IMG/VR virus record: IMGVR_UViG_3300028832_000009 | Length of the DNA stretch: 64,000 nt | Strand: one strand, 5' to 3' | Source of the DNA: an uncultured virus (IMG/VR IMGVR_UViG_3300028832_000009) | Taxonomy: Duplodnaviria; Heunggongvirae; Uroviricota; Caudoviricetes | In this document: piece by piece, positions 31,672 to 54,988 of the stretch | How positions within the stretch are numbered: the stretch's first letter is position 1 | Layout of the letters: each line of letters starts with the position of its first letter | Translations under genes and position numbers: made by a program | Notes under the pieces: model-generated | Databases searched by the model: none | Told to the model about the DNA's origin: nothing | The model's input: only the letters and a program-made list of their open reading frames with translations

Positions 31672-33093
31672 TTAAGCCGGGACGATCCTGCGATGGCAGG
31701 GCAGATTCTCCAGGAAGAGACTGTAGGTCTCGTGGATACGCACTGCGTTGTCAACGCGGCGCTGGCCGGTCTTGTCCAGTTCGAGGTTGGTGGTCTGGAG
31801 AGGCTCCATGATGTACTTGAGTACGAAGTTGGGGTCTATGACCATACCGCACTTGCTGAAGTAGCCATTGAACAGGCTGCCCATAGGCTTGACGAGCAGC
31901 TCCCCGAAAGGAGTCTCGATCTTGTAAACGCGGAGACCGAGGACGAGCTCGGTGTTCTTTGCCTCCAGCTGCTTCTGGTAGGACTTGGCGTTGGCGATCT
32001 GTGCGAGGAGGTCGTTGCCGGCGAACAGGAACCTGCGGTCGGCGCCGTTGTTACCCTCGAAGATGTCCTTGCCGATGGCGTTCCAGTCCTGGTCGGACAT
32101 GGCTGCGGAGAAGTCCACCGAGGACTGCTGGTCCATCTGCCACCAAAGACCGGTGGAGTGGTGGACGGGCTCGCTCTTGGCGTTCTTGGAGATGCCGCCG
32201 ATGCCGAAGAGGTTGGTGAACTCCATGCCGCGCTTGAAGTCCCAGAGGGTCTGCTCCTTATACACGGAGAAGTCCATTGCGACCTTCTTCTTCAGGAGGC
32301 CGTGGATGACGGACTCTTCCACCTGTGTCATGTGAGTCTGGTTGTAGTAGTGGCGGGACGAAGGCTGGATGGCGTAGCCCTCCACGGATGCCTCAAGCTC
32401 GCTGACTGCAGGGGAGAGACGGGCGAGGATGTAGTCCTCGGAGATGGCGGGAAGGGCGGCAGTGTAGTCCGCACCTACGCGCTGGACGGTGAGAGTATCA
32501 CCGCTGATGCTCTTGATGATGCAGGCGACGGGATTGCTGCTGCCGTCGAGCATAGGGCCCGCGTCGTTGCCGCTGCCGTCGATCGCGTGGACGACGAACA
32601 CGTCGGTGGGCTTCCACATATCAGGGTTGTCAACCTTGATGGCGGTTGCGGATGCGAGCGCGTCTGCCTTCACGGTATCGCGGGTCTCGCGGGTACCGAT
32701 CTCCCAACCGCCGGCCTCCCAGCTCTCGCTCTTCTGGTTGTTGGCGATGGAGCGGGTGAAAGTGTCTATAGGTGTATCCTGCGGGCGGATGTAAACGAGT
32801 TTCTTGTTCAGGTCATCATCCAGGTATCCGTTCCCTTGGATGCCGTTGCCATCGACTACGCCGCTGACTACGGTAGTGCCGGTAGGCTCGCCTGTCTGTG
32901 TTTCAGTCACCTCGGCGCTACCCGCTCCGACAACTGCGATAGAGAATCCACCGATTCCACCGATGGAGAAGAAGTTGATGAGAGCATCTACCAATGGCAC
33001 GCTCTCTACGCTAACGCCTGCGACGTTAAGCACGGATGCCACTGCCACTACGCAGAACAGCACCGACATGATTGAATGGATAAACTTTTTCAT
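31672..33093 (-). CDS. major capsid protein with an N-terminal hydrophobic leader
   Basis: Follows an acidic scaffold and precedes a terminator; TPID, NQTHM.QVE, DFKRGME...LFG, TGL and ETPFGEL fit an HK97-fold capsid. Confidence 0.8.
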   Translation of the reverse strand: MKKFIHSIMSVLFCVVAVASVLNVAGVSVESVPLVDALINFFSIGGIGGFSIAVVGAGSAEVTETQTGEPTGTTVVSGVVDGNGIQGNGYLDDDLNKKLVYIRPQDTPIDTFTRSIANNQKSESWEAGGWEIGTRETRDTVKADALASATAIKVDNPDMWKPTDVFVVHAIDGSGNDAGPMLDGSSNPVACIIKSISGDTLTVQRVGADYTAALPAISEDYILARLSPAVSELEASVEGYAIQPSSRHYYNQTHMTQVEESVIHGLLKKKVAMDFSVYKEQTLWDFKRGMEFTNLFGIGGISKNAKSEPVHHSTGLWWQMDQQSSVDFSAAMSDQDWNAIGKDIFEGNNGADRRFLFAGNDLLAQIANAKSYQKQLEAKNTELVLGLRVYKIETPFGELLVKPMGSLFNGYFSKCGMVIDPNFVLKYIMEPLQTTNLELDKTGQRRVDNAVRIHETYSLFLENLPCHRRIVPA

Positions 33094-39499: not shown

Positions 39500-42400
39500 T
39501 TATTTGTTTTTTACTATTTCCCTTGCCCTTTCGTACACCTTTTCCGTGGCAGGCTGCTTCGGCTCGTATGGGATTCCGTTCCTGCGTTTCTCCTGGACGT
39601 GGTTGTATTCCTCTTCCATGAGCGCGTCCACGAGGTCGGATTCGGCGCTGTGGTACTTGTGCCAGGCATCCTGCACCTCCAGGGAGAACGCGGCCTTCGC
39701 ATCCTTCTCTTCCTGCGTCTTGCCGGGCATCGCCACGAGCTGCTCAAGGAGTTCCTTCCAGTCCTTCTTCAGCTGCTCGACGCCCTTGCGCTCTATCTCG
39801 CGGGACTTGTAGAGGTCGCCCTTGGAGTAGGAGCCGTCCTTGGCATCCCGCTGGCGCACCTTCATCTTGTACTCGTTGTTCATTCCGTCGCGGAACATCT
39901 TGCCGAGCACATAGTCCTCACCTTCGAGGATCTTCTGCACCCTCGCCTCCTTGGGGAGATTCTCCGGGTGGTCATAGGCCATCGACGAGGTGATGTCCTT
40001 AGTGCCGGCGGCTATGTTCAACCGCTTGACCACATCTTCGGACAGCCTCTGATAGTCGTACAGCGCGGAGGTCTCGAAGGAGCTGCTGCGGTCCTTGTCG
40101 ATATGCCCCGTGAATCCGCTGAGGAAAGGAATGTCATCCCACCTTCTCGGGCGCTCCTCGTCCGCTGCAACCAGTTTCGCCACATCTTCCGCGACCCTGT
40201 AGAATCCGCCCCCGAGGTTGCGGAACACATCCCTCAGCACGCCGGGAGCTATGTCGATGCCCGTCGTCTGGGCGAGGCGCTGACAAGCCTCCACGAGTGC
40301 TTTCGGTGTGCTGGCATATGCGGACTGCGACTGAGGCACCGTACCGCTGAACGGATTGACCTTCTTCAGCGGCCTGCCGGTGTAGTCCCTGTTGGTGGCG
40401 ATGTCCACTATGAACATCGTCGCATCGGGAGTGACCGTACGGAGGACGGCGTCGCTTATGTTGCCGTTGGGGGTATATCCCTCTATCGGGTTGACGGGGA
40501 GTATCCCGGCTGCGGTGTTGATCGCATCAAGCCCTATGGTGAATCCGTTGCGGGCGGGATGCTTGTGGTACAGCAGCGATGCCGCTATGTCTCCCAGGCC
40601 ATAGAACGCACGGAGTTCCACCGCCAGGGGTATGGCGAGATAACCCGTGCCGGTACCGAGCACGATGCTGTTGCGCCTTACCCATTCGGGAAGGTTCCAA
40701 TACCAGTCGTGCTTCTTCCTCTCGTCTCCGTCTCCGTCATCGTCGCCCATGCCTGCCGCGAGCCCTGCGAGAGCCGCATTGAGCATCGGGGTGAGGACGC
40801 CGAGAAGGACGAGACCCCCGGCAGCGGCCGACACTTTCACGGGATTGACCTTGAACAGATGCAGGAAGTTGTCAAAGCCCTGCACGCCCGCATTGTAGAA
40901 GTAGTGCGTGGCACCCAGGTAGGCCGCGGTACCTCCGAGGAAGTCCTTGCCGGACTGCAGCCCCTTGCGGTTGAAGTTCACCGAAATCTCCTTCGCATCC
41001 GCTGCCGAGCGCTGTCCGCTGCGGCCCATATTGCGGGAAGTCTCGTATGCCGTGAACCTCGTCAGCAGCTCGAATCCCTCGTTCAGTGTCTTGACGAACT
41101 TCGCATAGTGCCCGAGGATAGGTATGCGCACCTTGCCCACATCTTCTCCGGCACGGCGCATCGAGCGCTCTATGCTCTTCTTTATCTCGGAGACGGAGTT
41201 GATGATGGTGTAACCGGTCTGCCCTCCGTCACGCATGAAGTCCATGAACATCTGCTCCTTGGGGGTGGGGTTGGGCTTGGTCTGGAGTTTGCCGCTCTCC
41301 CACTCTGCCATCAGCTTCACCATAGGATAGGCGAAAGTGCCGTAGCCGAAGTTGGCTATCCAGTTCTTCCTGTACTGATGACGGTACGGCCTGTCCTCCT
41401 TCGTTATGAGAGCAAGCTGCGAATAGATGGTATCCCTTATGAGGTTCCTCGCGGTGAAGTCAAGGGAATAGGTGGTGAAGAGGTTGGAGAGGGCGCGTGA
41501 TGCCCTGCGTATGAGCCGCATCGTCTTTGCACGCCCCAGCCCTGCCACGGCCTTGGCTATGGCGGGGTCTCCGTTCACCCATATCATCTTGTCCATTCCT
41601 CCGACCTTCAGCCGTATGAGGTGTTCGTTCGCGTGTGCCTTGTTGGCCATGATCCTGTCGAGTCTCAGTCCCCTGCGCCCTTTCTTCGCGAGGGGAGTAC
41701 CGCTGGTGCCGTCGGGCTGTATGTTCTCACGCATCGCCCTCATCCTCGCCTCGAACTTCTCAAGGGTTTCATCCGGGCGGGGCTGCGCGAGCGCCCATTG
41801 GCCGGTAGCGGGGTCCTTCTCGTACCAGGCATCGGTCTGCGTGAGCAGGGAGTTCTCCCCGGCGTTCAGCACGAAACGGTAGAGAGCCTGACGGGCCCAG
41901 TTGTCGTTGCCCTGGACTATCTCCGACTCCGCTATGTTGAGTATGTTCGCTATGGGGTTGTCCGCTTTCGTCCAGCGGCCGTTCATCTTCTTCACCACGA
42001 CGGACCCGATATTGGGATGCACCATGCTGTCATAGCCGTACACGTCCTCGGCGGTCTCTTCATCGAAGCCCCTCAAGGGGAGGTAATACTCCCACATCCT
42101 CGGCTCCGATTCCGTGCCGTGCAGGCGCTCGTATTCCTCCCTCGTCAGGAGTCCGTGCCTGTATGCGTGTTCAAGGCTGTAGTCGGTGCAGGCGCGTATG
42201 CGCTCCCACAGCTCCTCAAGGGCGGCATCGTCACCCACCTCGCTGCGGAACCGGGCAATGAGCGCCTTTGCGTCATCCTCTGCCTCGCGCCACTCGTCGG
42301 ACGGACGGCCTACCAGCGAAGTGAGACCGGACCAGTCCCTCTTCATTCCCTCGTAGCGGGATTCTATCTCGGCCTTCTTCTCCGCAAGGGCCTGCTCGAA

Positions 42401-45400
42401 CTTCGCAAGCTGCGCTTCCGTCCCGTTCTTCATCAGCTCAAGGCGTTCTTTCGCTGCCGCCTCTCCCAGAAGGTCAAGGGCCTCCTGCTTGCGCTGCTCT
42501 ATCTCGTTGTTCTTGTAGTCGTTTCGTTCGATGCCGGATACCGCATAGAGGTAGTCGAGGATCTTCTCGTATGATTCCTCCCTGCCGGCTGCTCCGCGTG
42601 TCTCCACGGGCACCTTGGCCTGCACCTTGCGCAGCTGCTCCAGGAGGGGAGTGAAACGGAACAGCTCGAACTCGTGGGCCTGGCTCTCCGCCCGGCTGCT
42701 GGCGAGGTTGTGCCGTGTCAGGTAGTCCTCGTTCTCTTCAATCTTGTCCTTGCCTACCTCCTGCATTATCTTCTCCATCCCTATCTTGACGGGGAGGTCT
42801 GCGTTCTGGTGCTCCATCACGAGGGTGTTGCGCCAGTCGCGCATCTCCGATTCATAGTCCACCTTCGCCACTCCCGAATCTCCGTCGCGGAAGAGCCTCC
42901 CGGTCCCGGGCCCATCGGGATCGGTGGGCCTGTTCGGGTCGGTTTCGTTGATTCCGAGTTCGCGCTTGAGGTGCGTATCCCAGGCCCAGCCCTCCATGGT
43001 GGAGAGGTAGTCGGGATTCTTCAGTTGCTCATAGGATGCGCGGAGGATATAGTTCAGTTCCCTGTCGGTGAAGAGGAATCCGTCCGTGCCGAAGATGGCA
43101 TCCACTATCCTGCCGATGGCTCTCTTTATGTCATCCCAGACACTGGTCCTGAAGTCTCCGCTCTCGGCGAGGGATGCGAGGTATTCCTCCATTCCCCGGA
43201 CGATGCCTGCGTCTCCTGGCTGCAGTCCGTGATTGAGCATATAGGATGATACCCACGCCCTGCCCTTGCTGTCAAGCGCGGAATAGATGCCAACCATTGC
43301 CTCGTTGAACTTGTCCCCGAAGAGCCTGCGCAGCCCAAGGTGTCCTACGGTCTCGTGGAACACCGTTGCCATTGCGTCGCGGAGGTCGGACACGTTATCC
43401 ATGCAGATTGCCACTTCGCCGGTTGCGGTGTCGTAATAACCCTTGTCCCTCTTGTGGCCTGCGGGCATCTCGTCGCGGCTTATCTGCCTGATGGGGACTC
43501 CGAGGATCTCGGACATACTGTCCAGCCTTCTATCCACGCCCCTGCGTTCCCCGTCAGTGATACGGCTGGCGGCGGCATTTTCTTCCGGAGCGGGGCTGGC
43601 CGCTTCCTCGGTCGCTCCCGCTTCTCCGTCACGCATACGCATTTCAGGATGAGGGTCGAGGTTGCGTTTTCTTATCTCGGCCTCAAGGTCCTTGTTTCCT
43701 GGCAGGAGATAATTGGTGCGGAGCAGCTCCGTGTCGGTCATGTCGTCGATGAAGGTATGCAGGCTGAGGACCATCTCCGCTTTCTTCCCTATCTTCTTCG
43801 CCCTATGGAGCGCCTCCTTCCTGTCCTTGAACTCCTGTGCCTTGTTGTCGGCCTCGTTGATCTCGCTGTATGACCTCGCACCGAAGCCGGTACCGCGGAA
43901 ATACTCCGTGAAGGCGTGCTGGTTGAACCCCTCGATGAGTGCATCCAACCTCTCCAGCACGGCTTCCTCCGCATTCTGTGTCTTGCCGGTGTAATCATCC
44001 CTGTCAGTGACGTTCGTGAAGGACATCACGCCCGAAAGCACCTTTATGCCGAGAGTCATCTTCCGCAGATCGGCGCGGAACTCTTCGTTACTGCCGGCCT
44101 CGGCCATCATCTCATACCAATCCGTAGTACCATAGTCGGTATAGGCATTGCCATCTCCGGTACTGTGCTGGAAGAGCTGATTGTACTTTATGAGCCTCCA
44201 GATGCCGTCCAGCTGGTTGACTATGTCGAGCATCTCCTCGGATATGAGGTGCTCGTACCCATATTCCACGCAGCCTTTCGCATAGGCGGTCACAGTATGG
44301 ATTACTTCGTGAAGGAACGTGTCCGCTTTCATCTGGTCGGTAATCCAATCGGAGTTCATGTACTTCCAGTTGTAAGTCAGCTCCTGTCCCGCAGTATGTC
44401 CCCCGACATTGTTAGGGGTTTTCTCGTTGAAAATGGTGGTAAGACCGAGTTTCTTGACAAGAGGGAACACCTTCTTCGCTATCTCGGCATTGCCCTTGTC
44501 CTTGTTCAGCTTGTTGAAGTTCTCTTCGACGACATCGAACGGGACTTCGCCTGCCTCAAAGTGCAAGAGGTTTCCGTGAACCCCTCGCACCGCGAGTTCC
44601 TCCTTCTCGGCCTCGCGCTTTGCATACAGGGAGTCCCTGCGCTCCTTGCTTGTCGCCTGGGCGATTTCCTCATCTTTTATGAGGACATCCCAGGCCATCC
44701 TTATGGAGTCATTCTTCGCGGCTTTCTTGCGCAGGTATGCCTGACGGGCCTGGACAAAATCGCGGATCTGCTTCTTGAGGTCCTCGTTGTTCACGTCCAT
44801 CTTGTACTGGTCAAGCATCTGCTTGAGCTGGCGCTCTATATCCCATTGGTCAAGGTTATTTCCATACTTGTCGTGGAACTCTTTCAGAACCTCCTCGTAT
44901 GGCTTGTCGGTATAGACTATGGCGTCCACCCTTTCCGTGCTGTCAGGCATGATGAAGAGCGTCTCCTTGGTGAATCCGTAGTTGCGGTAGAGGTGGTCGA
45001 GTACGGCCTCGACATTCTCTTCCGTCACGGTAGCCCTTATCGTATCCTTTGTCCAGGCGATGAAGGTATTGTCCACCAACAGGGGCTTCAGGTCCTCGTC
45101 GAGCATGAGAGGGTTCTTGGCGAGATTCTCCCTGCTCCTCAAGGGGCGCAGATATTGCACTACCATCACGTCTCCATCACGGCGGACCTCTATGTTCGTC
45201 TTGTCATCATAGATGCCGTTGTATCCGTTCCACACATCATCCTTGGTGACTGCGCTGCGTATCTTGAAGTTCTCCGGGTCGAAGTCCTCGGCGAGCAACA
45301 TACCCCTGTCCACGGTCACCTCCCCGGTATCCGTGTCTTTACGGGTGAAGGTGGTGATGGTGCCCTTGTACTCTCCGAGCTTTCCGCAAGCCTGGAGGAT

Positions 45401-48400
45401 GTTCCCGGTAATCATATACCGGATCTGCCTCGTCGTCTGCTTGGGGACCTTCTTGTCCCACCACTCATCCCTTGCCGTGCGGCGGGTTTCATCGGTGATG
45501 TTCTTGTCGTATGTCGGACCGCCTATCTCCCTCAAGTCAGAGCCGAGGCCGATGGTTCCATAGACATTGTTCACTATCCAAGTGATGATGTCATATTTTG
45601 AGACCACGGGAATCTCGATGACGGCGCGGGCGTCGGTCACGGCGAATACCGCCCTGACACTCTTCGGCTTGCCATCCTTCGCGGTCTTGAAAGCGATGAA
45701 ACGGCCATAGCGCTTCTGCCCGTTGAGGTCATCGGTAAGGGGAACGAGAACCGGCATACCGGGCTTGAGGTACTCTCCAGCCCTCTCGACACGGCCCACC
45801 TGCGTTGACAAGTCCATATCAAGACGGTTGTACTCGTCCATATTCGTACTAACGAGCTCCCTGTAGCTGGGATCGTTCCTGATGGCCCTGTCGTAATCTT
45901 CTTCGGTCTGGTCATCGGTCTTGGGCGTGGCAACTTTAAGGGCCTCCACCAATTGCTCCTGAGCCTCGAAGTTCTTCTTCTCCTTGTCGCGCAACACTTC
46001 ATCCCGGTATTTGGAAGATGCCTCATATATGTTGGTGCCATAGAGAGGGTCAATCTTCCCATCTTCCGTGAGCGCACCGAGTTTCCTCATCCTTGCGTAG
46101 ATTTCGGGGGAGCGGAGGGGCTTCTTGAGCACATCCACCTCAACCCTTTCCATATTGGTATCGTGGGCGAACACCGACATTGACTCGTTGTCCTTGCCCT
46201 TGATGAATATGGCCTGGTCCACGGTGGTCGCGTTGAGGTTCATCGTGGTGGTGGCGAGGTCGTTGATGCCGTTCTGGTTGAGGTAGTCTATCTGCTCGAC
46301 ATACGCGCTCTCCAGCTCCGTGAGGATCAGCTCCTGCCTCTTGCAAGACATTCGCTGCGCCCCCTTGAGCAACTCATAGAGCAAGCCGTCGCGATGCTCA
46401 TACTCACCACTCTTCTTCTCGATGGGGTCATCGAGATTCTGGTTGACTTCGGGGTGGTCGATAAGGAACTGACGGGCTACCTCATCGCCGTACTTGTTGT
46501 CCATATCGTTCGCATCCACCTTGTTGGACGACACCTTCTCCGTACCGACGGCATTGGCATCCAGGGATGCGAGTTTCTGCTTGAGCATCATTATTATCTT
46601 CTTCTCCGCAGGGATAGGGCTCATAATGTAGAAGTATTCGCATCGTGCCACCTGTCCGGTACGGTCTCCGCGGCCTCGTATCTGAACTTCTACATTGACG
46701 TCCTTTGCCGGCTGGAGGATAATCATCGTCCTCTTGCGCTGGTCGCCGAAACGCCGGCTGGCGTGAAGGGATATACCCGTAGCACCCGCCGTGTTGAGGA
46801 TGACGGCGTTATTAACCTCGCTCTCGTCGAGAGGGGCTGCTGCGCTGCCGCCGTTGAAATGGGTGATTTCCGAAGTCTTGTCTATCTTCATCGGCACCCG
46901 CTCCCAATTGCCGTCCGCTTTCTGCCTGAGCGACCAGCTGCGCCCGGTTATCTCGCCGCACCTGTAGCCGGCCTTCTCTATCTCCGACTTGATGTAGTCG
47001 ATAGGGGAGAGCATCAGGGGCAGGACCTCCTTGTCCTGGCTGTAGTTCTGGATGCTCTGGCGTATGATATTGGAATATCCGTTGCCCATTATCTTCTCGA
47101 ATGAACCGAGTTCGGAAACGGAACTGTCCTCCTTGACGGTCTCTTCCGTATGCGTCTCCGGGTTAATCCACTTGACGGTGCTCTTGAGCCGGTACTTCAG
47201 GCTCTTCTCCAGACCGCGGTTGAGGATGAAGGCAAAGTCTGCGGAAGGCACTTCTCCCTCGATGTCCTTGATATAGCTTTCAAGAGTGTTGTCCACCGCA
47301 ATGATGGGCTTCTTGCCCTCCTTGATCTGGTTGATGGCCATCTCCGCAGCCTTGCGGGCCTTTATCGCATAGAACATAAGGCTCGCCACGTTCGATACCT
47401 GGCTGGCATAGGGGGTGTAGGTGTACTCGCGGATGGTTACTTTCGTTCCCTCGTTTGAGGTTTCAAGCCTCTTCCGCGCTGCCTTGTTGGCCTCCTCGAA
47501 CTGCTCCTTGTTCATCTTCTTGATGACAGGGTCCATCATCTGCCTCTGCATCGAGATGATTGAGTTGACGATGTCCGTCGTCTTGTCGTAGGTATCCCTG
47601 GACTGCTTGATTTCCTCTTCGGTGAATACATCCTTGGGTTCATCCCAGTGTATCTTCACGTCCGAGAAGTCCCTCTCGCGACGCACCATCTCTCCGGTCC
47701 TGAACAGACCTTCGGCGAGGATTTCCTGCATGGGAACGCCGTACTTCTGGATGCTCTCGATCATATCCTCCTGCGTCATCTGCGCATCTCGCAGGGATGA
47801 GCGGAGGGCATAGAGCACCATATTGTCCGGGCGCTTGGCGAAGGTCGCGGACATAAATGTCACGCCCTGCGCGTTCTGCACTATGTCGCGGAAATAACCT
47901 CCGCGCCGGGATTCGCCGCTGGCGTTGTGGGATTCGTCGCAGATGACTATGGCATCCTTCGCGTACTGCTTCACCCAGTCGAGTTTCTTCTTCGCGCTGG
48001 GAGAGGTGGACTGGGCCTGGCTGTAGGTCATCATCACGACATTGTACTGCTTGCCCTTGAATGCCCCGCTCCACTTGACCTTCGGCAAGGCATCGGATTC
48101 GGAGCCATAGAGAGCGCTCGCTACGGATTTGCCCGGGGCTTTCAGTATGACGTTCCCCTCTTCCTCGCTCTTGCCCTTGTCAACGATGGGGACGTTGTTC
48201 ACTACGAAAGGAACGTGGTCGGTGCTGCCGATATCCACGAGATCCTGATACATATCGCTGAACAGGTCGGGTTTCTCCGTGACGAAGAGAATCTTCTTCT
48301 TCTCCCTCAAAGCCCAGCGGATGATAGCCGCACCCTGGCGGCCCTTACCCACGCCGGTCATATCTCCGACGATGAACATACGCCCGCCCAGCATCTGATG

Positions 48401-51400
48401 GAGCGCGAGAGCGACGGAATCCACCTGCTCGGAGGAGAGACCAATGTCCTTTCCGTCACCGGTGAACATCTCGTCGAGGGACTTGTATCCCTCCAGCCCC
48501 CTTACGAAGTCAGCCGCACCCTCCTTCTCTTCCGTCTCCATACGGAGGATTGCGTTGCGCATGGCGTCCGCCGACCCCGAAGGGACCACACTGCCAATTG
48601 CGTGTTCGCCCGAAGGGTCGGATACGGATTCGTATGGTACTTTCTCCTGGGTGAGCCTCTCGGATTTGTCGGCGCTCTTGGAGAACAGGTCGCGCAACTT
48701 CTCAAGGACGGCCCTGAGCTGGCCGCTCATCCTGGCTTTGGAGAGATCGTGCTTGTCGGTGATTGCGGATATGCCGGCTTTCAGCTCGTCCTTGCGGGCC
48801 TTCAGCTTTTCAGCATCCGTCTCGTTCTGGATGGCTTTCTTTTCCTGCTCGTAGGCTTTCTGCTCGGCCTCGGTAGCAGCGGCTTCGGGGTCTATTGCAT
48901 CTGTGCGTCCACCGGTGTCTCGTCCCACACCGACGGGTCCTTCGGATACCACTCCGGTGCCAGTATTTCCAGACCTTCCTCCTTTACCTGTCGGAGTCTT
49001 TCGTCCAGATCCTTCTCCGACATCGGTTCTTCCTCCGTGTCCTTCACGATTTCCTGAAGTTCCACTCGGTTCTCCGTCGTCCCAAAGAGTGCCCTGTTCG
49101 CCTCCAGCTCCTTCTTCGGCGTCACTTCCTTGATTCCCGCCCGGCGCTGCATTTCCTGAATTATCTCCGGCGTTATCCCCGTCGGTGCCAGGAGTTCCGG
49201 TCTCTCCTCCAGCTCCTTCTGAGGTATCACCAGGTACAGCTCCAGGTCGCTGCCCTCCCTGCTGTAAATCAGTAGTGTCTTCTTTTCCATTATCGTTGTC
49301 GTTTATGTTGATATCTGCTACTTCGATTCCGCTGACGGTCTCGGCGCTGTCCATCTCTTCCTTGAACTCTTCCATTCCGGGAAGGTCACGCGCTCCGTTG
49401 TAGATGGCCTTGAGGTAGGGGCGGATCGCGTCGCCGAGGTCGTTTATCATCCTCTTGGCGAAGTCAATGAACTTCCTTGCGCCAGCCTCTATGTGATAGG
49501 CGGCCATCTGCACGCCGATGGAGAATACCTCCGGGTCGAATCCCGCGTTGAGCTGTCCGAGTTTCTCGCGCATCCTGCGCTTCAGTTCCTCGTACTGGTC
49601 TTTCGTTACGACGGTGTTGGATTCTCCGTAACCGCCCTCCGTGGCGGGAGCCGCAGGCTCTGCAGGTTCCGTGGTCTCGGGGACCTCTTCGGTCGCCGCA
49701 GGCTCGGATTCCTCCGCACCGGCGGCTACTGCGCCTTCTTCTGCGCTTTCAGCTCCTTCAGCTGCCTGTCCGCTATCTCCTGCGTTTTCTGCAGGTGATT
49801 CGACTCCGCTTGCAGGACTTCCTTCGCCCACTTGTCCCCCTCGCTGGACATCTTCTCCAGCGACTGAGTCAGAGCCTCGTTCAGTGTTACCTTCTTGTCC
49901 ATTTTGTATAGTGTTTGCTTCCTGTTCGGAAATTACATTGGTCTGCGTGTATGCGCCGATGCGGTCAACGGCCTCGGGGTTCTCCCCGAACAGCCCGCCC
50001 TCTCCGTTCATTGCGGCGGCTATGTTGCGGAAGAGGTCGGTCAGGGCCTTGGCTTTCTTCGCGCCCTTGAAGATGGCTGCGAAACGCCTTGCCACGATGT
50101 TCGGATGCAGGTCGCCCTCGGTCTTGTCGCTGCCGAGTGGGACATTGTTCATCCAGTCCTCGATCGCTTTCCACGCCTCTTCGGTGGTCTTGGCTTTCTG
50201 GAATGCCGGGTCCGCGGTCTCGAAGTCGTGGTAGTAGGACAGTGCTGCCTGGATGTCAGGTATCACTCCCTCAAGGTTCGACAGCAGCGCGACATTCCTT
50301 TGCAGCGCCAATTTAACAATATTCGGCAACTTTTCATAGCCTGCCCTCACTTTTTCTGTCCCACTTTGGAACAAAGGTTCAAGGCTCAGCTCGCGGAAAG
50401 CGGCCACTGACGCATCTGTAAAGCGGACTTCTCCGCTCCTTGTGGTCTCCAGAGCATTTTGCAGCTCGGTATCGTTTATGTATCCGTTGCGGTTCAGCCA
50501 GTTGAGTGCGAGCTGGCCGTTCGCGTTGATGTAGTCCGAGAGCGTGGCATCCTCGCCGAGATCGCCCCCGTAGAGGATATTCAGGAACTCTTCCAGCCTG
50601 TCGCCTATCTTCTTCGCGAGGCCCTTGCCGGAGAAGGTCTGGTCGCCGCCCGACTCAAGGTCTTTCTGCTCCCTCTTCCCGAGTTCCTCCGCGCGTGCGT
50701 CGTCCACCGAGAGGACGCGGACAAGGATAGGGCTGTCCATTCCCTCGACCTGCTCCTTGGTGAGACCGAAGTCCTCCGCGTGCTCCGCGAGCCACTGCTT
50801 GTATCCGGCTGCGGTGTCCTGGGCGTATGCCCTGCGCAGCGCCTCGCTGCGTCCGTTGCCCTGGATGACCTCTCCACGGCTGTTCACGATAGGCGCACCG
50901 CCGTATGCGGTGGCACCCACGGTTATCTCTTCCGGACGGATGCCGTTCGCCATCTGCTGTATGGCCACGGCGCTGTCCGTGCGGTTGCGGTTCTTCGGCT
51001 GCCAGTTCTTCGCGAAGAAATGCAGGGGATTCTCCTGATCCGCCACGTGGGAAGGGATGATGCGCTTGGCATCCACCAACCCGTACTTGGCATCCACCAC
51101 CTCGGTCTTGGTGAAAGATATCTTCGTGTCCGCACCGGTGGCCGCCACGGCATCCTCCGCTGCGCGGTCCACGCGGTTTCCGTTCTGTATGAAGTATCCG
51201 CGCTCCTGCGCTGCCTCCGGAGTGTCGTCGGAGATGTCGGGCACGTTCCCCTCCACAGGTGCCTCGGGAGCCTGGGGCTCTGCCGCTGCTGTCGCTGCCG
51301 GTCGTGCCTGCCCCCTCTCCGGGCGCATCGCAAGGATGAGCGCACCGTAATTCTCCTTCTTCTGCTTTTCCTCCGCGAGTTCCTTGTAGAGCTTGGGGGC

Positions 51401-54400
51401 TTTCGCAAGGTCGGAGTTCTTGTCTATCCTCTCCTGTATCTTCTTCACCGCCTCCCCTGTTGCGGTGTATGCTTTCTGCACTTCCTTCAGCGCGTATTCT
51501 CCCAGCACGGAGTTCATATAATCCACGAGTTCGGGAATCCTCTGCGCGAAGGTCTCCTTGTCCACGTTGAACATATTAGCCATGTCCACCTCTCCGTCCT
51601 TCGTCCTGGGGAGGACGCCCTGCTGCGCCTCTTCCGCCGGAGCCTGCGGCTGGGCCTCCTGCCCCTCCTGCTGTCCGCCCTGCGCACCCTGAAGGGCTGC
51701 AAGGAAAGCCTGCTCCGTCATCGAGCTGGCCCTGCCGTTGCCGTCCGCATCCTCGTACTCGAAGTACACGCGCCCGTCACCCACCTCCGTCACATACGCC
51801 TGTACCGGCGATTTATTGACAAGTAGTGACAATTCCGTACCGACATAATCCCCGAGGTCAGTCGTGGGCTGCTGCTCCGCAGGTGCGGGTGCTTCCGCAG
51901 GCTGAGGCTGTTCCTCCTGTGCGGGCTGCTCCGCTCTCTGGGGGGAGTAGATCTGGACGTTTCCGTCCTGGTCTTTCTGCGCCATGTCGTAGAGAGTCTC
52001 CGCGGACACGACATTCATACTGCCGCCCTTGCCCTCGTCCCTGACGGTCACTCCGCCACGTCCGTCGGTGTTCACTATGGTCACGGGAGAGACACTGCCG
52101 GTCTCGTCCTGGATGAGTATGGTCTGGCCTGCGAGTCCGTTGATGACTGCCGCCTTCCCCGAGGGGCTGATGGTACCCACCGCCTGCTCGAAGGCTACCT
52201 GCCGCTGGTCCGCGAACGATGCGGCGGACTGCGCGATGAAGTTCTCCGGGTTCACCGAATCGCCGTTCCGCAGGGTGCCGGACTTCACTATGAGTTCGTC
52301 TGCGGAGGGAGACGCCGGAGCGATGCGCACGAGGCCGTCCGCACCGCCTGCCGACACGGAGCCGTCAGCATCCACCGACGCATCGTCCGTGAGCACTATA
52401 ACCGGAGTGCCCTCGTACTCGGCGACGATGACCGCGCCGTTCTTGAGGGAAGCATCCCACACCGTCCGGGAGAATCCGTCTATCATGTCCTCCGTCTCCT
52501 TGCGGTATCCGTCACGCAAGCCCTGGGCCGCAGCCTTGACCTGCGCGTATTCCGTAAGGACTTCCGCTGCCTCGGCGTTGCCCTGTCGTTCGATCACGGC
52601 AGCTTCCTGCGCGAGACGGAACGGATCTTTCTCAAGGTCATCCTCGTCCAGCCCCGCCTCAAGTGCGGCCTGCCTGGCGGCATCCTCCGCGGAGACGATG
52701 TCCCACGCGCTGCCGAGGTCGGGGAAGGAGTAGGTGCCGGAATAGGCATCCACCACCCTTCTCTTCTCCGAGGACTGGTCCCAGAGGTCGGATTCCATGT
52801 TCATCGAGAGGTTGCCCTCGACATAACCCAGCAGCGACTGCGCGAAGTTGTCCGGCAGCTTTCCTCCGGCTGCCTTCCTCGCCTTGTCCGCTATCTCCAC
52901 GACGCGGTCCTTGATATGTTCGGGAGTGCTGTTGCGGATGTCGCCCACGAGGGAATCGAGGTCCTCCTGGGACACGGCTCCGCTCTCCACCATCGGCTTG
53001 AGGGTCTCCACCGCCTTGTCGTAGCGGTTGACCATTGCGTTATACGCCTTTATGTTCGTCCTTGCGCTGAGCGCCGACATGGGCAGGAACGAGAGGAAGA
53101 GCGTCGCGAGGTTGTCCCCTGCGAAGAACTCCTTCATCGCCTCCTTGTCGCCGAGGCGGTCTCCGGAGAGCCAGCCTGCGGTGGAGTTGAACACCGACCC
53201 CACGACCTCTTCCAGCATTTCGTTGAACATACCGTTGAACTTGCCTTGGTCGAGGAACCTGCCTATGCTGCCCCGGTAGTCCGAGAGTGTCTTGCCTATG
53301 GCACTTGCGGGTGCGTTCTTCGTCACGGACTTGAACAGGGCTTTCTCCCCGGCTCCGAAATACTCGCCGAATCCCTCGGACCAGTATTCTATGTACTGCG
53401 TGAGCGCGGTGTTGAGGGCCGCGTTGGCACGGCTCCTGTCGAACTTCAGCCGCCCGTGTTCGTCCTTGTATTCCCCTGTCGTCAGGATGAGGTTGTCTGC
53501 GTATGCCTCCGCGGTGCGGGGGAAGAGCAGCGCGGTGCGCTCCGCAGCCACGCCCGCATCCGCGAGCATCTTCGCAGCGAGGTTGGGCTTGATGCCCCTT
53601 GCCGTGAGTTTCGCCATGGCACCGGGCAAGTCTGCCGCTATGTTCGAGGCGCCCCTTGCCGCAGCGCCTTTGCTCAGCCACTGCCTCGTGGCCTTGGTGG
53701 CGATATTCCTGGCTGCGCGGGCACCCATCTTCTCCAATCCTCCCGTGAGTATGAATCCCAGCATGAACTCGGCGCTCTGCTCCGCTGCCTGTCCGGCCTT
53801 TGCGTAGGTGGATGCGGACGCGGCTTTCACGCCGTTTATGTAGGAGTATCTGTCAAATGCCTTGAGGACTTCCTTCTCTCCGTCGGTGAGTCCGTTCTGC
53901 AGGGCCTCCGCTATCGCGGCGGACACTTCCTCCTGCCTGTCCTCCGGGACGGCTCCGTCCTTCACTCCGAAGGAATCCAGCACGTCGGTGATGATCGCGC
54001 CGGCCTTGTCGCCCACTTCGCGGACATTGCTCTTGGCGAGAGCGTTGACCAGGCCGAAGGTGAGGGAGTTCTCGTCCACCATCCTTCCGGCTGCGCCTGC
54101 GAACTGCCTGACCGCCACGGCTATGTCCTCGGGCACGCCCTTCAGCTCCGCCTTATCACCCAGCTTGGATTCCCTCTCGGTGATGTTGGAGAGGCGGCGT
54201 ACGGTCTCCCAGTTCTTCAGTTCCCTGTCGTTATAGACGGTGCGTCCGCCTGCGGTGGCGGGAGCGCTGAGGCGTTCGCGTGCGGCGTTGCCCGCATCCT
54301 TCGCCCCTGCGAGTGCGCCCTGGAACTCCGAGGTCTGCGTGAGGGCGTTCGCTATGAGCGCCTTTTTATCCTTATAGGCTTTATATCGCCCTTCATTTTC

Positions 54401-54988
54401 CTTGAGCCAGGCGACATCCTCCGCGTTGAGGGTGGGTGACATCTCGTCGATATCGGTAGTCAGCGATGCGTTGCGTGCCTCGTATTCCTTGGCGAACTCC
54501 GCATCCTGCCTGTCCACCTCTCCGGCCATGGCGGCGAGAGTGGCGGCATCCCTACCCACATAGGGGTTGCGTTCCGCGGCTTCGAGGTAGTCCTTCGTGC
54601 TCTCGGGAGCCTGCGCGAACGAGCTGGTCTCGGGTGCTGCGGGTTCCTGCGGCTCGGGCTCCGGCTCCTGCGCCTGTGCCTGCGCCTTCCTCTCTTCTCC
54701 GCGCATCCACCTGCGCGTGCTGCGCGGTGCCTGGGAGAAGGAACTCGTGGCGAGCGGATCGGGGGCTTCCCCTGCAGGGACCTCGGGGGCGTACAGCTTG
54801 GAGGCGAACTCCTCGTAGTCCTTGCCCAAGTCGGAATACCCCGCCTTGGAGAGAAGGTCGTATGCTATCCTGCTGTTCTCCCTGTCCCTGAACAAATCCT
54901 CGGCGCTGTCGCCTATGTCGGTATAGCCCTCCCTCTTGAGAAGGTCATACGCGAGCTGCCGGTTCTGCAAATATCTGTCGTCTGCCAT
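39500..54988 (-). CDS. giant polyvalent virion protein (5162 aa): DdrB-like ParB domain, strawberry-notch SF2 helicase, two zincin motifs, LPD38-like C-terminus
   Basis: WQPKNR...GAPIV...VIQGNGRS; GDMTGVGKGRQ, CDESHN, SATFAK, GATGISLHAS, QIRGRGDRTGQ; HEVIH; HETVGH; VNFNRKG, ATNRDYTGRP. Confidence 0.9.
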   Translation of the reverse strand: MADDRYLQNRQLAYDLLKREGYTDIGDSAEDLFRDRENSRIAYDLLSKAGYSDLGKDYEEFASKLYAPEVPAGEAPDPLATSSFSQAPRSTRRWMRGEERKAQAQAQEPEPEPQEPAAPETSSFAQAPESTKDYLEAAERNPYVGRDAATLAAMAGEVDRQDAEFAKEYEARNASLTTDIDEMSPTLNAEDVAWLKENEGRYKAYKDKKALIANALTQTSEFQGALAGAKDAGNAARERLSAPATAGGRTVYNDRELKNWETVRRLSNITERESKLGDKAELKGVPEDIAVAVRQFAGAAGRMVDENSLTFGLVNALAKSNVREVGDKAGAIITDVLDSFGVKDGAVPEDRQEEVSAAIAEALQNGLTDGEKEVLKAFDRYSYINGVKAASASTYAKAGQAAEQSAEFMLGFILTGGLEKMGARAARNIATKATRQWLSKGAAARGASNIAADLPGAMAKLTARGIKPNLAAKMLADAGVAAERTALLFPRTAEAYADNLILTTGEYKDEHGRLKFDRSRANAALNTALTQYIEYWSEGFGEYFGAGEKALFKSVTKNAPASAIGKTLSDYRGSIGRFLDQGKFNGMFNEMLEEVVGSVFNSTAGWLSGDRLGDKEAMKEFFAGDNLATLFLSFLPMSALSARTNIKAYNAMVNRYDKAVETLKPMVESGAVSQEDLDSLVGDIRNSTPEHIKDRVVEIADKARKAAGGKLPDNFAQSLLGYVEGNLSMNMESDLWDQSSEKRRVVDAYSGTYSFPDLGSAWDIVSAEDAARQAALEAGLDEDDLEKDPFRLAQEAAVIERQGNAEAAEVLTEYAQVKAAAQGLRDGYRKETEDMIDGFSRTVWDASLKNGAVIVAEYEGTPVIVLTDDASVDADGSVSAGGADGLVRIAPASPSADELIVKSGTLRNGDSVNPENFIAQSAASFADQRQVAFEQAVGTISPSGKAAVINGLAGQTILIQDETGSVSPVTIVNTDGRGGVTVRDEGKGGSMNVVSAETLYDMAQKDQDGNVQIYSPQRAEQPAQEEQPQPAEAPAPAEQQPTTDLGDYVGTELSLLVNKSPVQAYVTEVGDGRVYFEYEDADGNGRASSMTEQAFLAALQGAQGGQQEGQEAQPQAPAEEAQQGVLPRTKDGEVDMANMFNVDKETFAQRIPELVDYMNSVLGEYALKEVQKAYTATGEAVKKIQERIDKNSDLAKAPKLYKELAEEKQKKENYGALILAMRPERGQARPAATAAAEPQAPEAPVEGNVPDISDDTPEAAQERGYFIQNGNRVDRAAEDAVAATGADTKISFTKTEVVDAKYGLVDAKRIIPSHVADQENPLHFFAKNWQPKNRNRTDSAVAIQQMANGIRPEEITVGATAYGGAPIVNSRGEVIQGNGRSEALRRAYAQDTAAGYKQWLAEHAEDFGLTKEQVEGMDSPILVRVLSVDDARAEELGKREQKDLESGGDQTFSGKGLAKKIGDRLEEFLNILYGGDLGEDATLSDYINANGQLALNWLNRNGYINDTELQNALETTRSGEVRFTDASVAAFRELSLEPLFQSGTEKVRAGYEKLPNIVKLALQRNVALLSNLEGVIPDIQAALSYYHDFETADPAFQKAKTTEEAWKAIEDWMNNVPLGSDKTEGDLHPNIVARRFAAIFKGAKKAKALTDLFRNIAAAMNGEGGLFGENPEAVDRIGAYTQTNVISEQEANTIQNGQEGNTERGSDSVAGEDVQRGGQVGEGSPASGVESPAENAGDSGQAAEGAESAEEGAVAAGAEESEPAATEEVPETTEPAEPAAPATEGGYGESNTVVTKDQYEELKRRMREKLGQLNAGFDPEVFSIGVQMAAYHIEAGARKFIDFAKRMINDLGDAIRPYLKAIYNGARDLPGMEEFKEEMDSAETVSGIEVADININDNDNGKEDTTDLQQGGQRPGAVPGDTSEGAGGETGTPGTDGDNAGDNSGNAAPGGNQGSDAEEGAGGEQGTLWDDGEPSGTSGNREGHGGRTDVGEGSGRKTPTGKGGRSGNTGTGVVSEGPVGVGRDTGGRTDAIDPEAAATEAEQKAYEQEKKAIQNETDAEKLKARKDELKAGISAITDKHDLSKARMSGQLRAVLEKLRDLFSKSADKSERLTQEKVPYESVSDPSGEHAIGSVVPSGSADAMRNAILRMETEEKEGAADFVRGLEGYKSLDEMFTGDGKDIGLSSEQVDSVALALHQMLGGRMFIVGDMTGVGKGRQGAAIIRWALREKKKILFVTEKPDLFSDMYQDLVDIGSTDHVPFVVNNVPIVDKGKSEEEGNVILKAPGKSVASALYGSESDALPKVKWSGAFKGKQYNVVMMTYSQAQSTSPSAKKKLDWVKQYAKDAIVICDESHNASGESRRGGYFRDIVQNAQGVTFMSATFAKRPDNMVLYALRSSLRDAQMTQEDMIESIQKYGVPMQEILAEGLFRTGEMVRRERDFSDVKIHWDEPKDVFTEEEIKQSRDTYDKTTDIVNSIISMQRQMMDPVIKKMNKEQFEEANKAARKRLETSNEGTKVTIREYTYTPYASQVSNVASLMFYAIKARKAAEMAINQIKEGKKPIIAVDNTLESYIKDIEGEVPSADFAFILNRGLEKSLKYRLKSTVKWINPETHTEETVKEDSSVSELGSFEKIMGNGYSNIIRQSIQNYSQDKEVLPLMLSPIDYIKSEIEKAGYRCGEITGRSWSLRQKADGNWERVPMKIDKTSEITHFNGGSAAAPLDESEVNNAVILNTAGATGISLHASRRFGDQRKRTMIILQPAKDVNVEVQIRGRGDRTGQVARCEYFYIMSPIPAEKKIIMMLKQKLASLDANAVGTEKVSSNKVDANDMDNKYGDEVARQFLIDHPEVNQNLDDPIEKKSGEYEHRDGLLYELLKGAQRMSCKRQELILTELESAYVEQIDYLNQNGINDLATTTMNLNATTVDQAIFIKGKDNESMSVFAHDTNMERVEVDVLKKPLRSPEIYARMRKLGALTEDGKIDPLYGTNIYEASSKYRDEVLRDKEKKNFEAQEQLVEALKVATPKTDDQTEEDYDRAIRNDPSYRELVSTNMDEYNRLDMDLSTQVGRVERAGEYLKPGMPVLVPLTDDLNGQKRYGRFIAFKTAKDGKPKSVRAVFAVTDARAVIEIPVVSKYDIITWIVNNVYGTIGLGSDLREIGGPTYDKNITDETRRTARDEWWDKKVPKQTTRQIRYMITGNILQACGKLGEYKGTITTFTRKDTDTGEVTVDRGMLLAEDFDPENFKIRSAVTKDDVWNGYNGIYDDKTNIEVRRDGDVMVVQYLRPLRSRENLAKNPLMLDEDLKPLLVDNTFIAWTKDTIRATVTEENVEAVLDHLYRNYGFTKETLFIMPDSTERVDAIVYTDKPYEEVLKEFHDKYGNNLDQWDIERQLKQMLDQYKMDVNNEDLKKQIRDFVQARQAYLRKKAAKNDSIRMAWDVLIKDEEIAQATSKERRDSLYAKREAEKEELAVRGVHGNLLHFEAGEVPFDVVEENFNKLNKDKGNAEIAKKVFPLVKKLGLTTIFNEKTPNNVGGHTAGQELTYNWKYMNSDWITDQMKADTFLHEVIHTVTAYAKGCVEYGYEHLISEEMLDIVNQLDGIWRLIKYNQLFQHSTGDGNAYTDYGTTDWYEMMAEAGSNEEFRADLRKMTLGIKVLSGVMSFTNVTDRDDYTGKTQNAEEAVLERLDALIEGFNQHAFTEYFRGTGFGARSYSEINEADNKAQEFKDRKEALHRAKKIGKKAEMVLSLHTFIDDMTDTELLRTNYLLPGNKDLEAEIRKRNLDPHPEMRMRDGEAGATEEAASPAPEENAAASRITDGERRGVDRRLDSMSEILGVPIRQISRDEMPAGHKRDKGYYDTATGEVAICMDNVSDLRDAMATVFHETVGHLGLRRLFGDKFNEAMVGIYSALDSKGRAWVSSYMLNHGLQPGDAGIVRGMEEYLASLAESGDFRTSVWDDIKRAIGRIVDAIFGTDGFLFTDRELNYILRASYEQLKNPDYLSTMEGWAWDTHLKRELGINETDPNRPTDPDGPGTGRLFRDGDSGVAKVDYESEMRDWRNTLVMEHQNADLPVKIGMEKIMQEVGKDKIEENEDYLTRHNLASSRAESQAHEFELFRFTPLLEQLRKVQAKVPVETRGAAGREESYEKILDYLYAVSGIERNDYKNNEIEQRKQEALDLLGEAAAKERLELMKNGTEAQLAKFEQALAEKKAEIESRYEGMKRDWSGLTSLVGRPSDEWREAEDDAKALIARFRSEVGDDAALEELWERIRACTDYSLEHAYRHGLLTREEYERLHGTESEPRMWEYYLPLRGFDEETAEDVYGYDSMVHPNIGSVVVKKMNGRWTKADNPIANILNIAESEIVQGNDNWARQALYRFVLNAGENSLLTQTDAWYEKDPATGQWALAQPRPDETLEKFEARMRAMRENIQPDGTSGTPLAKKGRRGLRLDRIMANKAHANEHLIRLKVGGMDKMIWVNGDPAIAKAVAGLGRAKTMRLIRRASRALSNLFTTYSLDFTARNLIRDTIYSQLALITKEDRPYRHQYRKNWIANFGYGTFAYPMVKLMAEWESGKLQTKPNPTPKEQMFMDFMRDGGQTGYTIINSVSEIKKSIERSMRRAGEDVGKVRIPILGHYAKFVKTLNEGFELLTRFTAYETSRNMGRSGQRSAADAKEISVNFNRKGLQSGKDFLGGTAAYLGATHYFYNAGVQGFDNFLHLFKVNPVKVSAAAGGLVLLGVLTPMLNAALAGLAAGMGDDDGDGDERKKHDWYWNLPEWVRRNSIVLGTGTGYLAIPLAVELRAFYGLGDIAASLLYHKHPARNGFTIGLDAINTAAGILPVNPIEGYTPNGNISDAVLRTVTPDATMFIVDIATNRDYTGRPLKKVNPFSGTVPQSQSAYASTPKALVEACQRLAQTTGIDIAPGVLRDVFRNLGGGFYRVAEDVAKLVAADEERPRRWDDIPFLSGFTGHIDKDRSSSFETSALYDYQRLSEDVVKRLNIAAGTKDITSSMAYDHPENLPKEARVQKILEGEDYVLGKMFRDGMNNEYKMKVRQRDAKDGSYSKGDLYKSREIERKGVEQLKKDWKELLEQLVAMPGKTQEEKDAKAAFSLEVQDAWHKYHSAESDLVDALMEEEYNHVQEKRRNGIPYEPKQPATEKVYERAREIVKNK
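48892..49290 (-). CDS. candidate nested (+1 frame) gene inside the giant gene, 132 aa
   Basis: A-rich leader before ATG; natural-looking acidic protein, while the host frame is a Gly-rich linker. Confidence 0.55.
   Translation of the reverse strand: MEKKTLLIYSREGSDLELYLVIPQKELEERPELLAPTGITPEIIQEMQRRAGIKEVTPKKELEANRALFGTTENRVELQEIVKDTEEEPMSEKDLDERLRQVKEEGLEILAPEWYPKDPSVWDETPVDAQMQ
49726..49902 (-). CDS. candidate nested (+1 frame) gene inside the giant gene, 58 aa
   Basis: cactatacaaaATG; MDKKVTLNEALTQSLEKMSSEGDKWAKEVLQAESNHLQKTQEIADRQLKELKAQKKAQ*. Confidence 0.55.
   Translation of the reverse strand: MDKKVTLNEALTQSLEKMSSEGDKWAKEVLQAESNHLQKTQEIADRQLKELKAQKKAQ

Follow-up and report, generated by a model that had tools for sequence, protein, structure and literature searches.

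Can the DNA that encodes a linker between two domains of a giant phage protein be, at the same time, a gene for a second protein? The question is raised by a 64,000-nucleotide stretch of DNA from an uncultured tailed phage of the Caudoviricetes (IMG/VR record IMGVR_UViG_3300028832_000009), which is referred to here as the window. A 58-codon open reading frame (ORF) at 49726..49902 of the window is embedded in the +1 frame of a gene for a polyvalent protein of 5162 residues. The original prediction, made from the sequence alone, was that the domains of polyvalent proteins carry small partner genes inside their own linkers. We conclude that the ORF at 49726..49902 is very probably a real gene that has been maintained by selection. 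The whole of the account that we favor, in which an inter-domain linker of the giant gene also houses a true coding gene in its +1 frame, is assigned a probability of about 0.78. The giant gene and the parts of it that are needed first are as follows.

39500..54988, minus strand: host gene for the polyvalent protein (5162 amino acids, 15.5 kb), with ddrB-ParB, AAA_34/Helicase_C_4 and LPD38 domains; adjoins the portal gene
50711..51109, minus strand: ddrB-like ParB domain, host residues 1294-1426 (Pfam PF18763, E 4.8e-32)
49903..49927, minus strand: A-rich, G+C-poor leader of nested gene 1, 64% A+T across 25 bases, with no Shine-Dalgarno motif, as at the other gene starts of the phage
49726..49902, minus strand: nested gene 1, 58 codons and a TAG stop, +1 relative to the giant gene; predicted helix-loop-helix peptide

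Position and Start of Nested Gene 1

The ORF lies wholly inside 39500..54988, on the same strand as the giant gene and in a different frame. Its ATG is found at 49902 and its TAG at 49726-49728, and translation gives exactly the 58-residue peptide that had been quoted (P0001). The ORF overlaps host residues 1696-1754, where the host frame reads NGQEGNTERGSDSVAGEDVQRGG... and is, as had been described, a G/E/A/S-rich linker. It had also been placed right after the ParB-like region. The ORF does sit at the end of the conserved ParB-bearing module, but approximately 270 residues separate it from the end of the ParB domain.

The nested ATG is formed by the junction AAT-GGA (Asn and Gly codons) and is preceded by the 20 bases ggaagcaaacactatacaaa. 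A second nested ORF of the same +1 frame (nested gene 2, 48892..49290) was confirmed to begin at the same junction. Leaders that are A-rich and free of a Shine-Dalgarno motif are expected for the Bacteroidota, and a position weight matrix that was built from the 20 bases upstream of 27 gene starts of this phage describes A-rich, G+C-poor leaders of this kind. Among the 130 out-of-frame ATGs on the same strand of the giant gene (null score -5.06 ± 4.29), the two highest scores belong to nested ORF 2 (6.22, rank 1) and nested ORF 1 (4.82, rank 2), in support of the original prediction. By computation, then, the ORF has the start and the leader of an embedded gene. The Bacteroides-type -7 promoter motif, TAnnTTTG, has 20 matches in the window, about as many as expected by chance, and none within 39500..54988; the absence of an internal promoter sign in the giant gene is weak evidence in either direction.

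The +1 frame could also be entered from the giant protein itself. In that case the peptide would be the C-terminus of a shorter isoform, made by a programmed +1 or -2 frameshift where the ParB module ends and packed on the preceding subdomain, and a modeled contact with the subdomain immediately upstream (described below) would fit such intramolecular packing as well. However, the +1 frame is closed by a stop only 1 codon before the nested ATG in a diverged relative (L003), 2 codons before it in the cultured Bacteroides phages BS-TP4 and BKO1-TP3 and in 53/53 related IMG/VR loci, and 10 codons before it in the window and in a second diverged relative (L004). An extension of the tail chaperone G/GT type was rejected on the same stops at 1 codon (L003) or 2 codons (BS-TP4, BKO1-TP3, 53/53). 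The junction sequence that is common to the lineages is AAT-G, which is the nested ATG itself, and no slippery motif is evident at the junctions, though none was formally searched for. The leader resembles a gene start, and Rfam has no match in 48700..50400. We therefore regard a frameshift as highly improbable. Independent initiation is the simplest explanation because a +1 stop stands shortly before the ATG and only the ATG is shared at the junction; ribosomes would start independently at the nested ATG on the giant late mRNA.

Codon Choice and Chance

An open +1 frame in this kind of linker is not, by itself, unexpected. A GNN-rich host frame that is read one base later becomes a series of NNG codons, in which a stop is possible only as TAG and from which K/E/Q/L/A-rich, helical-looking peptides result. 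The helical K/E/Q/L character of the peptide is in part a consequence of this reading, and the entire ORF could be a by-product of linker composition for which no function is needed. The ORF counts agree with that explanation. Eight ATG ORFs of at least 58 codons were found in the +1 frame, compared with 7.0 ± 2.1 in 1000 synonymous shuffles; an ORF of at least 58 codons appeared in 31% of the trials when the local linker was shuffled (local P 0.31-0.52); and among ORFs of at least 50 codons, ten belong to the +1 frame of the giant gene and two to the +2. The excess over codon-shuffled linkers that would have been expected is therefore not there. Since a GNN-rich linker read in the +1 frame meets hardly any stops in any case, the shuffle test of ORF frequency has no power here, and we do not count the missing excess as evidence that the gene is not real.

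The choice of codons within the ORF is another matter. Codon frequencies were trained on 26 other genes of the phage and used to score the three phases of the giant gene in 511 segments of 58 codons. The host phase was best in 495 of the 511, and the 16 exceptions are exactly those at residues 1671-1711 and 1891-1991, which correspond to the two nested ORFs. The nested ORFs score +0.93 and +0.72 bits per codon in the +1 phase, whereas the remaining ORFs of at least 50 codons (eight +1, two +2) score from -0.63 to -1.20, as expected for off-frame sequence. When the host amino acids were fixed and the synonymous codons were redrawn 5000 times from the usage of the phage, the observed +1-frame likelihood exceeded that of 5000/5000 redraws (z +6.7 for ORF 1 and +7.9 for ORF 2), the host-frame codons over the nested ORFs were found to be unusually poor (z of about -7 and -8), and the +1 phase outscored the host phase in only 0.5% of the redraws. 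The codon fit in the +1 frame is never reached by the redraws, and therefore the effect is not a by-product of linker composition. What exceeds chance is the codon choice, the start context (ranks 1 and 2 of 130) and the conservation, including a pattern of selection across 34 haplotypes that is presented below; the length of the ORF does not. With these results a chance origin is improbable, slightly less so than a frameshift.

Relatives in the Window's Own Clade

Relatives with DNA comprise a near-identical strain (L001/L002/L005/L013, also present in sequencing run X5), a diverged IMG/VR contig (L003/L006/L014; 56% identity in the ParB module) and a diverged metagenome contig (L004; 64% identity, matching protein P0007). 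In every one of them a +1 ORF with an ATG start occupies the corresponding place. The ORF of L003 is 58 codons long, with start and stop codons that match those of the window. The ORF of L004 encodes 53 residues, of which about 40 can be aligned before the sequences diverge, at a point where the downstream module differs too. The protein databases hold three copies of the nested product, all of them gene calls on short contigs: P0122 (98% identical), P0123 (62 residues) and P0124. A repeat protein, P0125, was returned by the exhaustive profile search and was judged to be spurious. Searches of the region with blastn against phage and plasmid collections gave no match, and profile searches of genome contigs gave no relative, whether the alignment used was that of the host module or that of the peptide. 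A metagenome scan gave one locus, the sequence of which ends 185 bases past the match. In sequencing runs X20, X18, X12 and X5, the ORF is covered only by the known L002-type variant, with no new variation.

The window was compared with the L003/L006 contig in a codon-threaded alignment of 1683 codons. In the two alignment segments that cover nested ORF 1, host third positions are 76% identical in both (0.76), compared with 0.26-0.67 everywhere else, and the amino acid identity of the host protein is only 0.36-0.38; the usual order of conservation (position 2 > position 1 > position 3) is inverted. The proportion of synonymous differences (pS) in the host frame is 0.26 within nested ORF 1 versus 0.62-0.76 in four flanking stretches, and the ratio of nonsynonymous to synonymous rates (dN/dS) for the host frame is 1.37. 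The alternative-frame peptides of the window and L003 share 27 of 58 residues, compared with 9.6 ± 2.5 (maximum 21) in 20,000 redraws of the synonymous codons of the relative. Of 178 segments, only those at nested ORF 1 show a clear advantage in conservation for the +1 frame over the host frame (BLOSUM scores of 128-131 versus 90-101). Between the window and the L002-type strain, dN/dS is 0.25 in the alternative frame and 2.3 in the host frame, values that derive from 8 changes only.

No insertion or deletion is found inside nested ORF 1 between the window and L003, and the linker right past the nested stop differs by about 19 codons; the same linker has a 9-nucleotide indel relative to the L002-type strain. 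This part of the host gene is the following.

49622..49725, minus strand: remainder of the linker past the nested stop, host residues ~1755-1789; indel-rich and poorly conserved

Seven of the 8 differences in ORF 1 between the window and L002 (the 98%-identical strain of run X5) are packed into 26 bases at 49842-49867, which correspond to nested codons 12-21; the remainder of the ORF is unchanged except for one difference near the stop. Recombination over a short patch could account for this cluster, as could a peptide surface that is variable.

For the window's own clade taken alone, the sequence comparisons provide good, not conclusive, support for a coding +1 frame. The same DNA could be conserved as nucleic acid, because it forms an RNA structure, binds a protein or serves as a recombination joint. 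Its similarity could also be due to recent exchange of the segment. In favor of such an alternative, the window and L003 differ at similar numbers of sites in the three codon positions (24, 14 and 18, not significantly unequal), their nucleotide identity of 68% is more than the identity of the host protein predicts, and the genes of the phage are mosaic. On the other side, the codon-usage fit of the +1 frame would be unexpected for an RNA or DNA element, Rfam gives no match, and the indels begin right past the nested stop. The comparison in Bacteroides phages that follows also speaks against this alternative, and we give it very little credence.

Replication in Bacteroides Phages

A tblastn search with the ParB module identified two cultured temperate phages of human-gut Bacteroides, BS-TP4 and BKO1-TP3 (64-65 kb), at 33% identity over 78% of the query. 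The giant gene adjoins the portal gene in each, and their GenBank annotation gives the giant gene and none nested in it. The BS-TP4 giant protein, gp3, has 5391 residues and its gene is 43% G+C. In the phase scan of this gene, the host phase was best in 524 of 534 segments, and the 10 exceptions are at residues 1661-1681 and 2841-2911. Among its 282 out-of-frame ATGs, the top two start contexts are those of a 54-codon ORF at residue 1665 (rank 2, the equivalent of nested gene 1) and a 115-codon ORF at residue 2845. Both are in the +1 frame and start at Asn-Gly codons, and in the codon resampling they reach z 4.6 and 4.1, compared with 0.8-1.9 for five control ORFs. The 54-codon ORF is located at the end of the ParB module (ParB 1275-1399, InPase 1832-1969) and the 115-codon ORF just ahead of the helicase module. 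The two places are those of the two nested ORFs in the window.

IMG/VR was scanned with the BS-TP4 host segment that precedes the 54-codon ORF, and 53 loci of 71-100% identity were obtained. In 53/53 of these an ATG is present at the exact expected base and opens a +1 ORF of 54-74 codons, with 15 distinct peptides in all, and the host frame is likewise open in 53/53. Divergence was determined from 52 of the loci (34 haplotypes); L070 was left out since its sequence is incomplete. In the upstream domain, differences per site at host positions 1, 2 and 3 are 0.085, 0.074 and 0.295. In the nested part the corresponding values are 0.198, 0.137 and 0.099, which in the alternative frame is position 3 (0.198) > position 1 (0.137) > position 2 (0.099). 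Between the two subgroups, the ratio of nonsynonymous to synonymous proportions (pN/pS) is 0.30 in the alternative frame, 1.40 in the host frame and 0.21 in the upstream domain. At the amino acid level the peptide (identity 0.68) is better conserved than the linker (0.53) and close to the upstream domain (0.72).

Such a pattern is what is classically seen where the +1 frame encodes a protein. In the aligned sequences, synonymous change in the host frame is reduced in the window's clade, and selection of the purifying kind on the alternative frame is clear in the Bacteroides clade. The coding order of the three positions, along with pN/pS of 0.30, speaks against conservation at the level of nucleic acid. 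The repeated design of the original prediction holds well beyond the window: the two-ORF layout recurs in BS-TP4 and in 53/53 and 32/33 related IMG/VR loci for the first and second ORF, respectively, with purifying selection in the +1 frame.

One further ORF of this kind was observed in BKO1-TP3. At gp55 residues 2518-2604 (L017:12856-13116), where the giant gene is unlike that of BS-TP4, there is a third kind of +1 ORF of 87 codons that starts MDEYTKKVLRLQGHSEK..., has an A-rich leader and is protein-like; it belongs to no Pfam family.

The Peptide and Its Candidate Partner

The AlphaFold2 model of P0001 is a hairpin with helices at residues 7-20 and 24-57 and a predicted local distance difference test (pLDDT) score of 89.8. 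P0001 is about neutral in charge and contains no Cys, and its polar N-terminus (MDKKVTLNE) has no signal-like hydrophobic stretch. A Foldseek search of the PDB with the hairpin model returned nothing at E <= 0.001. Under the account that we favor, the product would be a 58-residue helical hairpin, and the same bases would serve the host frame only as a tolerant G/E/A/S spacer.

Co-folding with the ParB-like domain had been proposed as a check. The nested peptide was modeled with host residues 1255-1715, each with its own alignment. The ipSAE interface scores in three runs were 0.71, 0.72 and 0.72, and the best of three controls gave 0.00. At least 72% of the contacts agree between runs, and the pLDDT of the partner is at least 84. 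Among 157 solved complexes, 116 attained the mark used, as did 2 of 215 mismatched pairs; because the alignments here are our own, these counts apply only roughly. In the model, peptide residues 4-54 contact host residues 1572-1662 (318-408 in the numbering of the segment).

50003..50275, minus strand: helical subdomain, host residues 1572-1662; contact site of the nested peptide as predicted by the co-folding model

The peptide would most likely dock on this helical subdomain, which is encoded just upstream of the nested gene, and may be a partner specific to the module that contains ParB, with a role such as stabilizer, chaperone or regulator. Binding to residues 1572-1662 is, on the strength of the model, a tentative proposal that we rate at a little under an even chance. 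The position of the ORF is consistent with such a role. Nested ORF 1 always closes the ParB module, but what comes next depends on the lineage: a KDQYEEL-type domain follows in the window and in L003, a different one in L004/P0007, and InPase in BS-TP4. An ORF that is constant with the ParB module while its other neighbor changes fits a module-specific partner.

The gene may instead be real and its product unrelated to the ParB module, with a target in the bacterial host or elsewhere in the phage cycle and a linker that merely tolerates overprinting. The link to a partner depends on a model, the calibration was made with other alignments and allowed 2 of 215 mismatched pairs to pass, and small helical hairpins are promiscuous in such models. 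Against this, the ORF is found where the ParB module ends whichever module comes next, and all three co-fold controls gave 0.00. We consider a product unrelated to the module unlikely, though considerably less so than chance, frameshifting or nucleic-acid conservation. Of the original proposal of small partner genes in polyvalent-protein linkers, the reality of the gene is thus upheld by the codon, start and selection tests, and the role as a partner has the support of the co-folding model.

Weighing the Nested Gene

Several results weigh against a gene at 49726..49902 and have to be set beside those above, in addition to the chance-level ORF length and the local linker shuffle. DNA from the window's own clade comes from only three diverged lineages. 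In this clade the alternative-frame Nei-Gojobori ratio is 0.92 for the window versus L003 and 1.9 for L003 versus L004 (21 codons), and the differences by codon position are not significantly unequal. When the substitutions were placed at random, the alternative-frame BLOSUM score was only modestly unusual (P 0.035), and retention of the ATG, the open frame and the same stop had P 0.034. An exhaustive profile search among 1.84 billion representatives gave no free-standing or in-frame homologue, and the nested peptides match no family of Pfam or PHROGs. (PHROG matches of E 0.036, for the L003 copy, and 0.094 were too weak and were disregarded.) The high AlphaFold2 confidence proves little for a helical peptide, and the co-folding model supports binding without showing it.

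Sequence similarity between the peptides of the two clades is weak. The profiles of the window clade and of the Bacteroides phages match weakly (E 0.0024 over 38 columns), the L003 and BS-TP4 peptides match weakly as well (E 0.02, 34% identity over 47 residues), and BLASTP of P0001 against the BS-TP4 peptide gave no alignment. The window-clade profile finds the BS-TP4 peptide at E 0.0058, and the two peptides agree in place, +1 frame, size, Asn-Gly start and helix-Gly-helix layout. Homology of the window and Bacteroides-phage peptides is likely but unproven.

Nested Gene 2 and the Pre-Helicase Family

48892..49290, minus strand: nested gene 2, 132 codons in the +1 frame, with an AAT-GGA start, in the linker ahead of the Strawberry-notch (Sno)-like helicase module

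Nested gene 2 is retained in L006 as an ORF of 116 codons (25% identity over 55 residues, E 0.003). The alignment of the window with L003/L006 shows no peak of synonymous constraint over it, and AlphaFold2 gives pLDDT 46, which is no support for a fold. The host-frame linker over 48892-49290 contains a short conserved motif, G-(T/S)-L-(W/F)-(D/G), in P0003, P0004 and P0006, and part of the linker that overlaps nested gene 2 is therefore constrained in the host frame too.

In the Bacteroides phages, 33/33 loci have a +1 ORF of 103-144 codons that ends at the start of the helicase module. The counts for this family omit L103, which is dissimilar, and thus use 32 of the 33 loci (21 haplotypes). 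Differences by alternative-frame position 1, 2 and 3 are 0.343, 0.273 and 0.442, and pN/pS is 0.53 in the alternative frame and 1.18 in the host frame. An hhalign comparison of nested gene 2 of the window with this family gave E 0.042 over 12 columns, and homology is not shown by it. A 122-codon +1 ORF was also observed in a G/S-rich linker at L011:2341-2709 (IMGVR_UViG_3300016484_000532), right past a KDQYEEL-type domain, as is nested gene 2; the comparison of the two ORFs revealed no similarity (E 0.41).

Relation to Known Systems

Nested out-of-frame genes are in general of a known kind. The lambda gene Rz1 is embedded in the +1 frame of Rz, and phiX174 has B in A and E in D; each is on the same strand as its host gene, out of frame, and has its own start. 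Rz1, which belongs to the lysis cassette, is a lipoprotein and bears a signal sequence and a lipobox Cys. Nested gene 1 resembles Rz1 and phiX174 B and E in being wholly embedded, out of frame, on the same strand of a phage gene. It differs from Rz1 in that its peptide has no Cys and no signal-like hydrophobic N-terminus, and it is not a spanin of the Rz/Rz1 type. It differs from all of them in that the host gene encodes a 5162-residue multidomain protein and the overlap is limited to a linker; the host frame is under almost no constraint because of this confinement.

In the available text of PMC7314908, traH is described as encoded in another frame within traI of the IncP plasmid RP4, and TraH as stabilizing the TraI-TraJ relaxosome. 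This is the closest match to a nested partner, and the likeness is one of mode of working rather than of membership. The host protein here is a phage polyvalent, virion-type protein with no relaxase family among its Pfam matches. TraH is an acidic relaxosome protein, whereas the peptide here is about neutral and lies in a disordered linker, and its binding is modeled only. The gene comS, which according to the available text of PMC8160284 lies out of frame in srfAB of Bacillus subtilis, is likewise a very small gene inside a giant multi-module gene, and its product is a regulatory peptide. In contrast, comS is located in a catalytic module of a bacterial nonribosomal peptide synthetase gene, and the pathway on which it acts, through protection of ComK, is an unrelated one, whereas nested gene 1 is phage-borne, is found in a linker and is predicted by the co-folding model to act on its own host protein.

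With its ddrB-ParB, LPD38 and Sno-like helicase domains, the host gene is like the published polyvalent proteins (Iyer et al. 2017, PMC5512222). The words "linker", "overlapping" and "frameshift" have 0 occurrences in the available text of that founding paper, and nested genes are, as far as is visible there, not part of the published description of polyvalent proteins. The text available for the BS-TP4 isolation paper (PMC12694917) contains neither "polyvalent" nor "DarB", and its sole "overlapping" is in the title of a reference. Full-text literature searches, supplements aside, gave no description of nested genes in polyvalent-protein linkers; the original prediction, which knew of none, agrees with the literature searched.

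The Giant Gene and Its Phage

The phage is apparently temperate and tailed, with an integrase (7710..8999), an SU10-type capsid protein (31672..33093) and a P22-like portal protein (37469..39490), and a survey of sequencing runs found it in gut metagenomes of bovine and goat. By its sequence, the 5162-residue protein is a typical phage polyvalent protein; its helicase is assigned by Pfam to AAA_34/Helicase_C_4 and is Strawberry-notch-like. For host residues 1290-1900, a search that covered proteins of 2839-9034 residues gave 918 relatives at E <= 0.001 among 1047 candidates scored, and the eight nearest show 51-61% identity. The portal gene comes directly after the giant gene in the window (39500-54988 and 37469-39490) and in BS-TP4 (L015 1511-19725). 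This arrangement and the similar genome sizes of about 64 kb suggest one widespread phage group that spans the rumen and the human gut.

Between the two nested genes lies one further part of the host protein.

49319..49621, minus strand: strongly conserved host domain, residues 1790-1890, without a Pfam family

This domain of about 100 residues is 91-97% identical in amino acid sequence to the L003/L006 relative, yet its pS is 0.685, and its synonymous sites are saturated. It recurs in 8 IMG/VR loci among which the upstream architecture differs. The plus strand, antisense to the giant gene, holds very long ORFs of 455-561 codons at 43916-45601, 50459-51826 and 52916-54439, which probably result incidentally from the G+C-rich codon pattern.

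Implications

It is possible, although we consider it doubtful, that the linkers are themselves small older genes that are now read through in another frame. The giant genes would then have grown by the fusion of neighbors across intact small genes, and each nested gene would be a partner that travels with its module, with one family following the ParB module and another preceding the Sno-like helicase module. The resemblance of the +1 frame to the normal coding frame of the phage, together with an off-frame host phase over the same bases, fits such an origin. If it is true, hundreds of abundant gut-phage genomes would hide unannotated regulators or chaperones of injected counter-defense proteins.

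Giant polyvalent proteins are thought to be counter-defense cargo of phages and conjugative elements, and a conserved nested gene would bear on how these proteins are folded, packaged or held in check. The peptide would supply a concrete candidate partner for a ParB-type module. The idea is directly testable because the design is present in cultured Bacteroides phages and because a change that is synonymous in the host frame removes the nested start. In the available text of PMC12694917, BS-TP4 is reported from 31.3% of 930 viromes, and nested genes of this kind would add unannotated proteins to very common gut phages. Such genes would be systematically missed by gene finders, and DNA that has been read as a "disordered linker" could be the primary coding sequence of another gene.

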